Source: an uncultured Defluviitaleaceae bacterium (GTDB taxonomy: Bacteria; Bacillota; Clostridia; Lachnospirales; WRBF01). From it: 64,000 bases of DNA. Position numbers: made by a program. Location of the stretch: the NCBI GenBank assembly GCA_964492715.1, contig CAZBLK010000009.1, forward strand, positions 27,653 through 91,652, in the 5' to 3' direction. Position 1 is the first letter of the stretch; every line of letters starts with the position of its first letter. Positions 9,001 through 12,000 of this stretch are shown here, piece after piece.

Positions 9001-12000
9001 AATGGTATGTTCAAATGAACAACTTTGAAAAGTTTTTCGTTGGTATGACTGCTCCAGAAGTAAAAGCTTGGTATGAAAAGTACACTGGTCAAACAGGCAA
9101 ACCTCTTACAAAGTCTGTTACAAATGAATATGACATTGCTAAATGGTCTTCATTAACTTATTTTGAAAGAGAAAGAATTGAAGACGTTACATCTTCTGCA
9201 ACTATGAGCCTTAACGATGCACACAGCGACATTGTAGGCGCAATTGTTGAAGCTTACAACAACAAAAAGGCTGTTTCTGGCGAAGTTGCTTCTTTTGGTA
9301 TTGGGTACAACAACGTGTTTAGAAAAGGCCCAGGTAAAAGCGAAGACGGAACTCCTGTTTACAGCTTTAACGAATCATACGCAGCTGTTGCTTTTGACAA
9401 AGATGGCAAAGTTGTAAAAAGCATAACAGACGTTCTTGAAGTTGCTACACCAAACTATGACGGTGCTGCTATGCCTCACATTTCAGGCTTGCCTGGTCAA
9501 AACAGGTACGTTACTGATGTTACTCATAAGGGCGAAGTTTATTTAGTGCCTGCTAAAAAGTAGTTTAAACTTTTAATTAATTTTAGGTGTTTCTCAGTTT
9601 GTTTTGAGAAATACCTTTTTTTCTAAAAAAATTTATAAATATACAAATTAGTCTTTTTAATTTCTAAATTTAGGTATATAATATAAATAAACATATATAC
9701 AGCAATGATAAAAGCTACGGTTTATAATTTTCTACAGAGAGCTGGTGGGTGGTGCGAACCAGTGAAATGTTAAGCCTTTCCACTTTTGGAGCTGTAACCC
9801 CTTTTTTGAGTGGCTGGCTTTGCCAGCAATTTGGGTGGCACCACGGAACTTTCCGTCCCATGTTTTTTGTGGGCTTGGGGAGTTTTTATTTTTGATTTTT
9901 AGGAGGATAAAATGTTAGACATTAAGTTTGTGCGTTCAAACCCTGAAATTGTGAAGGAAAATATTAAAAAGAAGTTTCAAGACAAAAAGCTTGTTTTAGT
10001 AGACGAAGCAATTGCATTGGACGAAACGTTTAGAGAAATGAAAGCTCGTTGCGATTTTCTTAGAAGCCAAAGGAACGTAATAAGCAAGGAAATTGGTGGC
10101 TTTATGGCAAAGGGTGAAAAGGACAAGGCAGAGGAAGCAAAAGCAAAGGTTGCAGAAATTGCAAAAGAGCTTGCTGGGCTTGAAGGCAAGGAAGAAGAAA
10201 CTTCTGCCAAATTGAAAGAAATTATGCTTGTTATTCCAAACATTATCGACCCATCTGTGCCAATTGGCAAAGACGACAGCGAAAATGTAGAGGTTGAGCG
10301 TTTTGGTGAGCCTGTAGTTCCAAGCTTTGAAGTGCCGTACCATGTTGAAATAATGGAAAAGCTTAAAGGCATAGACTTGGACAGTGCAAGAAAAACAAGC
10401 GGCAACGGTTTTTATTATCTTCTTGGGGACGTTGCACGTTTACATTCAGCTATTCTTTCATACGCTCGTGATTTTATGATTGACAAAGGGTTTGTTTACT
10501 GCATACCACCTTACATGATTCGCAGCAACGTTGTTACAGGTGTAATGAGCTTTGCCGAAATGGAAAACATGATGTACAAAGTTGAAGGCGAAGATTTATA
10601 CTTAATTGGGACAAGCGAACACTCCATGATTGGAAAGTTTATCGACACAATACTTGACGAAGAACAGCTTCCGCAAGCTTTAACAAGCTACTCTGCTTGC
10701 TTCCGCAAAGAGGTTGGGGCGCATGGCATTGAAGAACGTGGCGTTTACCGTGTTCATCAGTTTGAAAAGCAAGAAATGATTGTTGTTTGCAAGCCAGAAG
10801 ACAGCCCAAGATGGTTTGAAAAAATGTGCAAAAACTCTGTAGAGTTTTTCCGCTCGCTTGACATTCCTGTGCGCACTTTAGAGTGCTGCTCTGGCGATTT
10901 GGCAGACCTTAAAGTTAAAAGCATTGACGTTGAAGCATGGTCGCCAAGGCAGCAAAAATATTTTGAAGTTGGAAGCTGCTCAAATTTAGGCGATGCACAA
11001 GCACGCCGCCTTGGAATTCGCATAAGAAACAGGGAAGCTGGCAACTATTATGCACACACTTTAAACAACACAGTTGTTGCTCCTCCAAGAATGTTGATTT
11101 CGTTTTTGGAAAACAACTTGAACGAAGACGGCTCGGTTAGAATTCCAGAACCTCTTAGAATGTATATGGGCGGTAAAGATTGTATAAAGTAAATTGCAAA
11201 TTAGGTTTGTAATTTTTATAATTCATGATATAATAAAATTAAATTCAGAAACAAGAGGGACAGAACATGATTAGACTAAACTTTGCAACTACCACCACCA
11301 CTACTTAGGGCTACTTTGAGCTATGTTGTTTAAGCAACCAGCGACAAAGGCAAGCCCTATTAGTCGTGTGGTTGCAAGGTATATACAACACCTTGCGTCA
11401 CTTATAAAAGTGTGCAAGGTGTTTTTGTTTTTGAAAGGGGGTGTTTGCTCCGATGTCTAAAGGAATGTTTGAACAATGTTCTAAGGGGCGGCTCACCGTA
11501 TTTTCTTCATTTGAAAACTAACTAAAATGAAGGAGATACGACTATGGAAAACTACAAAAAACTATTGGCAGAAAAGCTTTTGGTTGCAGTAAAACAGTCT
11601 TATATAAATGCTGAGCTTATATATTTTGAGGAAAGCGAAAGCGGTTTTTTCTGTGACTACAACATGCCGCTGCTTAACCCAACATTGATTGCAGAAATAT
11701 CAAAAAGCATTGATACAAGTGGAATACAATGTGCTTATGAATTACAAGGTTTTTCCAGCGTTTATGAGGACGGCAATGCAGAAAACCGTGTACTACAACG
11801 CATTTATGTAACAGCTTTTCAAACAACTGCTGAACTTGAAGCGTATAAAAGCTTTGTTTCCGAAGCGTTAAAGCGTGACCACAAAACACTCGGCAGTGAA
11901 TTAAAGCTATTTTCAAGCTCTAACGAAATAGGGCAGGGGTTGAATTTGTGGCACCCAAAAGGTGCAATGATGCGTTACCTGGTTGAAAGCTTTGGGCAAA

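Follow-up and report, generated by a model that had tools for sequence, protein, structure and literature searches.

A candidate ribosome-sensing attenuator with an in-frame run of threonine codons in the leader of a Clostridia thrS gene

Does the thrS gene of an uncultured Defluviitaleaceae bacterium, a member of the Clostridia, sense threonine supply through a translating ribosome? The question is raised by its leader of 350 nt, in which a first-pass annotation had noticed a short open reading frame (ORF) ending in six consecutive Thr codons, followed by alternative antiterminator and terminator helices. Aminoacyl-tRNA synthetase (aaRS) genes of Bacillota are held to use T-boxes and 'none' of them classical attenuation (PMC1262725); since then, a hisS paralogue in bacilli has been the sole report of the latter (PMC2965389). 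We analyzed the leader within its window (the whole stretch of 64,000 nt, whose positions are used throughout) and compared it with the leaders of related thrS genes. The conserved mini-gene with its Thr run, together with the switchable hairpins, makes it most likely that Thr charging is sensed via a stalled ribosome and not by a T-box. From the sequences and from modelled folding we judge, with good confidence, that the leader is a ribosome-mediated transcription attenuator that would sense charged tRNA-Thr, followed by a module that would act at the level of translation.

The upstream ORF with a threonine run

The first module, an element of about 190 nt, is preceded by two promoter-like sites and contains an upstream ORF (uORF1) with its Shine-Dalgarno (SD) sequence:

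11194 to 11222, + strand: sigma-70-like site TTGCAA-17-TATAAT, overlapping the next (consensus scan)
11207 to 11234, + strand: promoter-like site, -35 TTGTAA, 16-nt spacer, extended -10 TGaTATAAT (consensus scan)
11254 to 11259, + strand: SD of uORF1, AGAGGG, 7 nt 5' of the ATG (GAGGG at 11255-11259), read from the sequence
11267 to 11308, + strand: uORF1, MIRLNFATTTTTT followed by a stop codon, read from the sequence, with an equivalent ORF in orthologues
11288 to 11305, + strand: run of six Thr codons, ACT ACC ACC ACC ACT ACT, the proposed sensor

Where the first-pass annotation had placed one sigma-A-like promoter (11194-11234), the consensus scan gave the two overlapping sites listed, and the SD and uORF1 with its six Thr codons were read exactly where it had put them (ATG ATT AGA CTA AAC TTT GCA ACT ACC ACC ACC ACT ACT TAG). 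On sequence grounds the transcript is inferred to start near 11241, and a -10 box of the TGnTATAAT type lies 20-30 nt 5' of the uORF1 start in several orthologous leaders. Six ACN codons in succession occur once in the 64-kb window as against 0.01 expected from shuffles, and a scan of 20 intergenic gaps revealed no other leader peptide in the window.

To compare leaders, we drew on scans of genome and metagenome collections and on exact look-ups of homologous proteins. This gave a non-redundant set of 24 close relatives whose upstream region was complete (threonyl-tRNA synthetase, ThrRS, 63-82% identical), taken from metagenome-assembled genomes (MAGs) of Clostridia, Oscillospiraceae, Defluviitaleaceae and Saccharofermentanales and from metagenome contigs; the 23 leaders on which the comparison turns are a modest and partly related set. 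Module 1 was found in 23 of the 24 and was absent from one (L009). All 23 module-1 leaders carry an equivalent of uORF1, 10-22 codons long, with an ATG, an in-frame Thr run and a stop, as the first-pass reading of the leader implied. An SD (GAGG or GGAG) stands at the same spacing in most of them and is weak or absent in a few. The number of consecutive Thr codons ranges from two to seven (TAT in L008, TTIT, TTT, TTTT, TTTTT, up to TTTTTTT) and all four synonyms are used (ACC 55, ACT 30, ACA 14, ACG 10), which argues for selection on decoding and not on nucleotides. Beyond the Thr run the peptide shows no conservation in the 23 leaders, and Thr is the only reading consistent among them. The stop codon either marks the foot of a hairpin, H (UAG-GGC), or falls 4-5 codons into the 5' arm of H.

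The gene upstream of the leader varies from locus to locus (serS, MerR, LysM, pyruvate kinase, methylase and others), and the leader therefore belongs to thrS. Furthermore, when nhmmer profiles of both modules were run against 181 sequences (0.98 Mb, including distant thrS genes of other phyla), they matched only leaders of short-form thrS genes, once each.

Alternative helices and the proposed attenuation

Downstream of the Thr run, and partly within it, lie segments that can pair in more than one way. We denote them A to E:

11281 to 11293, + strand: segment A, over the first Thr codons, predicted to pair with C when free of ribosomes (anti-antiterminator)
11306 to 11359, + strand: hairpin H, which begins at the uORF1 stop codon and encloses segment B (-21.6 kcal/mol, z -3.9)
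11334 to 11345, + strand: segment B (GCAACCAGCGAC), an internal copy of A that could capture C after H melts
11363 to 11380, + strand: segment C (GUCGUGUGGUUGCAAGGU), the pivot, with A, B or D as partner
11388 to 11401: segment D, 5' arm of the terminator
11408 to 11422: segment E, 3' arm of the terminator
11368 to 11401, + strand: antiterminator hairpin C:D, 11 bp, over the 5' arm of the terminator (-12.6 kcal/mol)
11388 to 11432, + strand: intrinsic terminator, an interrupted 14-bp hairpin (11388-11422) followed by UUUUUGUUUUU, given in the feature check as TTTTTGTTTTT (-20.1 kcal/mol, z -6.6)

The leader folds below its shuffles (z = -6.5 for 11241-11432 and -7.0 for 11241-11545). Its minimum free energy (MFE) fold contains three of the elements that the first-pass annotation had described: the 12-bp pairing of A with C, including 2 G-U (11281-11292 with 11368-11379), the long hairpin at the uORF1 stop that buries GCAACCA/CGAC (11334-45), and the interrupted terminator hairpin with its U-tract behind it. 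The buried segment is complementary to 11363-75. The antiterminator had been read as a helix of 7 bp. That core, GCAAGGT (11374-80) with ACCTTGC (11390-96), is indeed there and has -7.9 kcal/mol as a hairpin, but the antiterminator is longer than this because GUG at 11368-70 also pairs with CAC at 11399-401. We have therefore replaced the 7-bp helix as the entire antiterminator by the extended helix 11368-11401, which takes up the terminator's 5' arm, outer and inner part alike, and is present in most orthologues (11-12 bp, -10 to -15 kcal/mol). In the MFE fold, the U-tract of the terminator (11423-11432) also pairs with an A-rich stretch at 11247-11256 that includes the region of the uORF1 SD (CAGAAACAAGAG); A-rich sequence 5' of this SD recurs in many orthologues.

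We then asked how well the helices are kept in the orthologues, using an alignment of 20 leaders for the statistics. A terminator hairpin with a U-run was found in all orthologues examined; compensatory changes occur in its outer stem, of which 95.7% is paired. The structure of the terminated state (A:C, H and D:E together) is 80% paired and has two-sided changes in 45 cells, a level reached by 0 of 500 shuffles. The combination B:C plus D:E is 89% paired, and B:C alone 91.7%, with covariation (AU 13, GC 6). H likewise has covarying pairs in the orthologue alignment (RNAalifold), and an unguided RNAalifold consensus pairs the Thr codons with GGUCGUGUGG and contains H and the terminator. The motif GCA[A/G]C, present in both A and B, changes in step with G[U/C]UGC at the H apex and within C (AU 13, GC 6); this fourfold covariation fits A and B as alternative partners of C. 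Mean duplex energies lie below the means for shuffled partners (in brackets) for all four pairings: -17.0 kcal/mol (-10.8) for A:C, -19.5 (-10.1) for B:C, -10.3 (-7.7) for C:D and -17.6 (-5.7) for D:E. Antiterminator cells are 80% paired over the 20 leaders versus 24-50% for slid controls. Finally, the divergent leaders L177 and L180 rebuild H, B:C, C:D (13-14 bp) and D:E from different sequence.

To see how a ribosome would bias these choices, the nascent transcript was folded up to segment D with the ribosome footprint forced single-stranded. With no ribosome, A and C were paired. A ribosome placed with its A site at any of Thr codons 1-4 covered segment A and left H folded, and C switched from A to D. 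When the A site was moved to the last Thr codons or the stop, the foot of H was melted, B captured C and C:D was weakened. We had considered B:C as a fully exclusive anti-antiterminator, which holds only partly in the window; it is clearer in L177, L180, L084, L171 and L175, where the state with the ribosome at the stop removes C:D entirely.

What the leaders themselves display is a set of sequence features with their conservation, complementarity, covariation and thermodynamic preferences; that the uORFs are translated in vivo, that ribosomes stall, in which order the RNA folds and that the outcome depends on Thr is what we infer from them in the following model. Transcription would begin near 11241 and a ribosome would load on uORF1. 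C could pair with D to form the antiterminator, occupying the 5' arm of the terminator, and its alternative captors would be A (the Thr run and the codons just before it) or B (normally locked in H). When Thr-tRNA is scarce, the ribosome would stall on the first Thr codons, cover A and halt before H, so that B stays locked; C would be free, the antiterminator would form and RNA polymerase would read into thrS. When Thr-tRNA is plentiful, the ribosome would reach the stop codon at the foot of H or in its 5' arm and melt H, whereupon B could capture C; after release of the ribosome A could also capture C, and the terminator would form. In nine orthologues uORF1 extends into the 5' arm of H, and there an unstalled ribosome must therefore open the hairpin. 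With no ribosome at all, A:C would form and again lead to termination, making A:C a safety for untranslated RNA. The model thus amounts to a chain (5' arm of H with B, B:C, C:D, D:E) in which C would be free only while a ribosome is parked on the Thr run.

A second module between the terminator and thrS

The region 11434-11543, which did not figure in the first-pass annotation, forms a second regulatory module that follows the U-tract of the terminator directly:

11434 to 11443, + strand: second, near-perfect SD (AAAGGGGGUG), right after the U-tract
11447 to 11489, + strand: P2/P3 hairpin around the start codon of a second upstream ORF, uORF2 (P2 GCUCC/GGGGC)
11453 to 11521, + strand: uORF2, MSKGMFEQCSKGRLTVFSSFEN followed by a stop codon
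11495 to 11497, + strand: uORF2 codon ACC (Thr), invariant and a possible second sensor
11498 to 11539, + strand: hairpin sequestering the thrS SD, with the anti-SD arm at 11498-11512 in uORF2 and the SD arm at 11525-11539 (-14.5 kcal/mol, z -6.5)
11544 to 13091, + strand: thrS, threonine--tRNA ligase (TIGR00418, Pfam, structure alignment)

The motif AAAGGRGGUG is invariant in 23 leaders (in a longer form, AAAGGRGGUGWU) and is an extended match to the complement of the 3' end of Bacillota 16S rRNA. From the start of uORF2 to its ACC codon the distances in the 23 leaders are 21, 30, 33, 45, 48, 60 and 75 nt, all multiples of three, and frame 0 contains no stops in 332 codons versus 33 and 20 in the other two frames. 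Free of stops and with lengths in multiples of three, the ORF is therefore maintained. P2 (GCUCC/GGRGC) is 98.3% paired, with four of its five pairs changed on both sides. The ACC codon is present in 23 of 23 leaders, never as a synonym, and is complementary to the GGU of the second SD; it sits 0-6 nt 5' of the anti-SD arm in every leader. In 21 of 23 leaders the pairing partner of the thrS SD lies within uORF2, with differing flanking pairs. In the folding model, the probability that the thrS SD is unpaired rises from 0.09 to 0.45 when a ribosome is masked with its A site at the ACC, and a ribosome masked six codons upstream has no effect.

By its sequence, module 2 is of the translation attenuation architecture, that is, a leader ORF with its own SD and a main SD sequestered by an arm within that ORF (uORF2). 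Transcripts that read through the terminator would carry a very strong SD and uORF2, a ribosome translating uORF2 would unmask the thrS SD, and one stalled at the ACC just 5' of the anti-SD would keep it open. The arrangement resembles the translation attenuators of cat, cmlA and erm, in which the 3' part of the leader ORF is the anti-SD arm that hides the main SD, and, in joining a transcriptional and a translational layer in one leader, it resembles vmlR of B. subtilis and streptococcal msrD (PMC9226507, PMC10314930). Unlike in cat, erm, vmlR and msrD, the likely signal here is an amino-acid codon and not an antibiotic-dependent arrest peptide, and no arrest motif is seen.

Two further pairings were tried for module 2 and rejected, an extension of P1 into a helix of the second SD with the anti-SD and a beta:gamma switch (internal AAGGAG with the anti-SD); in both cases the complementarity was inconsistent or weak in the aligned sequences. 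The modules are separable, as L006 has module 1 only, its terminator being followed directly by the thrS SD, and L009 has module 2 only, directly after the upstream gene. One close relative with a ThrRS 77% identical (loci L164 and L165) has neither module and no Rfam match in the 150-180 nt 5' of thrS. Since both contigs start there, and since the upstream sequence is different, the two loci were set aside as uninformative.

Weighing the attenuator against other readings and known systems

Several points weigh against a ribosome-sensing attenuator as described here. The covariation sought as a test of the helices is present for H, A:C, B:C and the terminator but not for C:D within the main clade, where the antiterminator core is nearly invariant; its complementarity is therefore conserved, with no covariation beyond shuffles. 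In the window, B:C displaces the antiterminator only in part. The GCAAGG:CCUUGC core is still allowed in the ribosome-free equilibrium folds of L084, L006 and L171, so that the three-state logic depends on kinetics. An automated ribosome-mask scan over the 23 leaders, with arms drawn from the last 75 nt, was too noisy from spurious pairings of the 5' flank and was discarded; the segment duplex energies and hand-anchored folds took its place. L008 has T-A-T only, and weak runs like that of S. lividans occur elsewhere. For module 2, an AUG is absent at the aligned uORF2 position in L009, L177 and L180, where UUG or CUG would be needed, the invariance of the ACC may come from its pairing with the GGU of the SD instead of from sensing, and, in the folding model, the thrS SD would be exposed by whichever ribosome passes over the anti-SD, so that specificity for Thr at that step is only putative. 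Finally, all evidence is computational and comes from uncultured MAGs and metagenomes.

The alternative that survives best concerns module 2, which might be a ThrRS-binding translational operator or a device for translational coupling, leaving module 1 as the only sensor of threonine. We regard this as an appreciable possibility, though not the probable one. P2 covaries as an RNA helix would, the G-A at the start position is more conserved than the AUG that three leaders lack, the ACC is invariant at the nucleotide level, and opening of the SD hairpin is what any translating ribosome would achieve. The frame from the start to the ACC is nonetheless strictly kept despite indels, the distance of the ACC from the anti-SD arm is tightly confined in every leader, and the loops of P3 are not conserved, which leaves no mimic of an anticodon arm. 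A more ambitious reading, in which a two-stage ribosome sensor of tRNA-Thr charging has replaced the T-box, with the Thr run of uORF1 governing a chain of five segments as stage 1 and the uORF2 ACC gating thrS translation as stage 2, we put forward tentatively and consider somewhat unlikely. In stage 1, A and B would act as redundant decoys that hold the antiterminator off until a ribosome is parked exactly on the Thr run. If true, this leader would be the amino-acid-specific counterpart of the antibiotic-responsive two-layer leaders of vmlR and msrD.

Could module 1 be an untranslated structured riboregulator, with the ACC-rich run kept as the partner of GGUCGUGUGG and a factor (ThrRS, tRNA-Thr or a metabolite) switching termination? 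A conserved helix has the Thr-codon run as one of its strands, the sequences of H and C are kept more closely than a simple hairpin would require, and autoregulation of the E. coli ThrRS by RNA mimicry is established knowledge (mentioned in PMC2965389). Yet the in-frame ATG, the absence of any stop before the one at or in H, and in most cases an SD are found in 23 of 23 leaders. The Thr codons are not confined to the paired part, their number differs between leaders and each of the four synonyms occurs, and leaders with a weak A:C (L163, L008) still keep the ORF. There is also no match to an Rfam family and no conserved anticodon-like loop: a search for an E. coli-type ThrRS operator found none, the loops of H, P3 and the SD hairpin varying freely among the orthologues. 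Such a riboregulator is improbable.

In the E. coli thrS operator, ThrRS binds anticodon-arm mimics next to the SD and its N-terminal domains compete with the ribosome; the ThrRS encoded here lacks such N-terminal domains. Both systems exert feedback on thrS via the leader of its own mRNA. They differ in that the Clostridia leader has no conserved anticodon-like loop and would work by ribosome stalling and termination.

Slightly less probable still is a translated uORF1 through which the terminator responds to general translation stress, for instance from an antibiotic, in the way of the erm, vmlR and msrD leaders, and not to threonine charging. Leader-ORF attenuators of Bacillota are best known for antibiotic-responsive genes (PMC9226507, PMC10314930, PMC6310831), and the enzyme under control, a ThrRS of atypical form that lacks an editing domain, could serve as an auxiliary or resistant copy. 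Against this, the uORF1 peptide is conserved in its Thr run only and varies in the remainder, so that there is no arrest-peptide motif, and the regulated enzyme charges tRNA-Thr, which gives a direct feedback logic.

A divergent T-box with one ACC/ACU as specifier codon, although it would be the usual control of Bacillota aaRS genes (PMC1262725, PMC2494555) and one serves serS 1.6 kb upstream, has next to nothing left in its favor, as cmscan gave no match to it in 11194-11543 at E<=10 while the serS leader scored 88 bits, ten orthologous loci gave none to RF00230 at the gathering threshold while a Fusibacter thrS leader reached 94.6 bits, and neither AGAGA nor GNUGGUA nor the T-box 14-mer is visible in the thrS leader sequence.

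The wider Rfam search likewise pointed to no known RNA family. No Rfam family matched the thrS leader on the + strand at E<=10; Thr_leader (RF00506) had no match in 9400-11700 at E<=10 and none at the gathering score in the window or in 20 loci; and a search of the window and 20 related loci with every Rfam family at gathering score placed nothing in the thrS leader. Both modules are without a matching family in Rfam 15, and these two motifs would join its catalogue. In the Fusibacter locus (L021, Clostridia), the T-box upstream of thrS is canonical (2088-2319), and both control devices therefore occur within Clostridia. A T-box would share with the ribosome-sensing attenuator the gene, the signal (tRNA-Thr charging) and the output (read-through of a leader terminator). 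The attenuator differs from it in that the sensor would be a translating ribosome and not the binding of uncharged tRNA, and in having no Stem I, specifier loop or T-box sequence.

The closest relatives of the thrS leader in design are the proteobacterial attenuators of thrL-thrABC, trpL, hisL and pheM-pheST, with which it shares a short ORF containing consecutive cognate codons, an intrinsic terminator downstream of it, and mutually exclusive antiterminator and anti-antiterminator structures whose fold would be set by the position of the ribosome. As in pheST, the regulated gene encodes the cognate aaRS. It differs from them in its Clostridia host and in having no sequence or covariance-model similarity to them. 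Its chain is longer, with two redundant copies of the anti-antiterminator, A in the Thr codons and B in H; the stalled ribosome would stand upstream of H and not on the first arm of a 1:2 hairpin; and a second uORF with an SD-sequestering module comes after. We place the leader among the leader-peptide attenuators, as a member whose chain is laid out unusually and which may have a second layer of sensing.

Leader peptides on aaRS genes are known or predicted for pheST in gamma-proteobacteria and for trpS and leuS in Streptomyces (PMC1262725), for the weak thrL-thrS of S. lividans, which has only two Thr codons, is leaderless and shows no clear terminator (PMC8079986), for cysS of Rhodobacterales (leader uORFC-8-2; PMC8632094) and for the Bacillus hisS paralogue/hisZ with its His leader (PMC2965389). 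Those outside Proteobacteria were predicted by comparative genomics or RNA-seq. The first-pass annotation was right that such a device is unusual on an aaRS gene of Clostridia, but its restriction of the class to Proteobacteria does not stand in view of the Streptomyces, Rhodobacterales and Bacillus cases; the thrS leader is therefore unusual for Clostridia and not a new principle. Like these non-proteobacterial leaders it places cognate codons in a uORF ahead of an aaRS gene. Unlike them, none of which is in Clostridia or similar in sequence, it has an explicit terminator, antiterminator and Thr run that are conserved in 23 leaders. In full-text literature searches no account of a Thr leader on a Clostridia thrS came up, and the leader is real and apparently unpublished. 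It would represent a convergent replacement, in which a clade of uncultured Clostridia reads tRNA charging on thrS by a ribosome-sensing leader and not by a T-box. The element of module 1 also offers a compact test of attenuation in Gram-positive anaerobes, where the coupling of transcription and translation is debated.

The thrS product itself matches TIGR00418 with 563 bits, in keeping with its annotation. It is a short form of 515 aa in which Pfam shows only the class II core and the anticodon-binding domain, and its residues 65-505 correspond to 195-633 in an alignment with solved ThrRS structures; it is therefore without the TGS domain and most of the editing domain. The short form (510-520 aa) makes up more than 120 protein clusters and occurs in Clostridia MAGs. 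Such a ThrRS may serve as an inducible back-up (auxiliary) enzyme, a question raised by its association with the leader.

Directly upstream of the thrS leader lies serS (9912-11192). The T-box that had been assumed for it was detected at 9696-9863 with 88.3 bits (E 3e-19), which falls just short of the Rfam gathering score of 93 bits and was therefore missed by the default scan. In the alignment its specifier position reads UCC (Ser), and the model's optional insert of 40 nt is absent. The stretch from the serS stop (11192) to the thrS promoter-like site (region 11190-11240) showed no terminator-like site, and read-through from serS could therefore enter the thrS leader. On the downstream side, in one lineage (L177-L179, ThrRS 64% identical), asd, which encodes aspartate-semialdehyde dehydrogenase of the threonine pathway, lies at 3066-4139 and starts 17 nt after thrS. 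In these loci asd is probably in the same attenuator-controlled operon as thrS.

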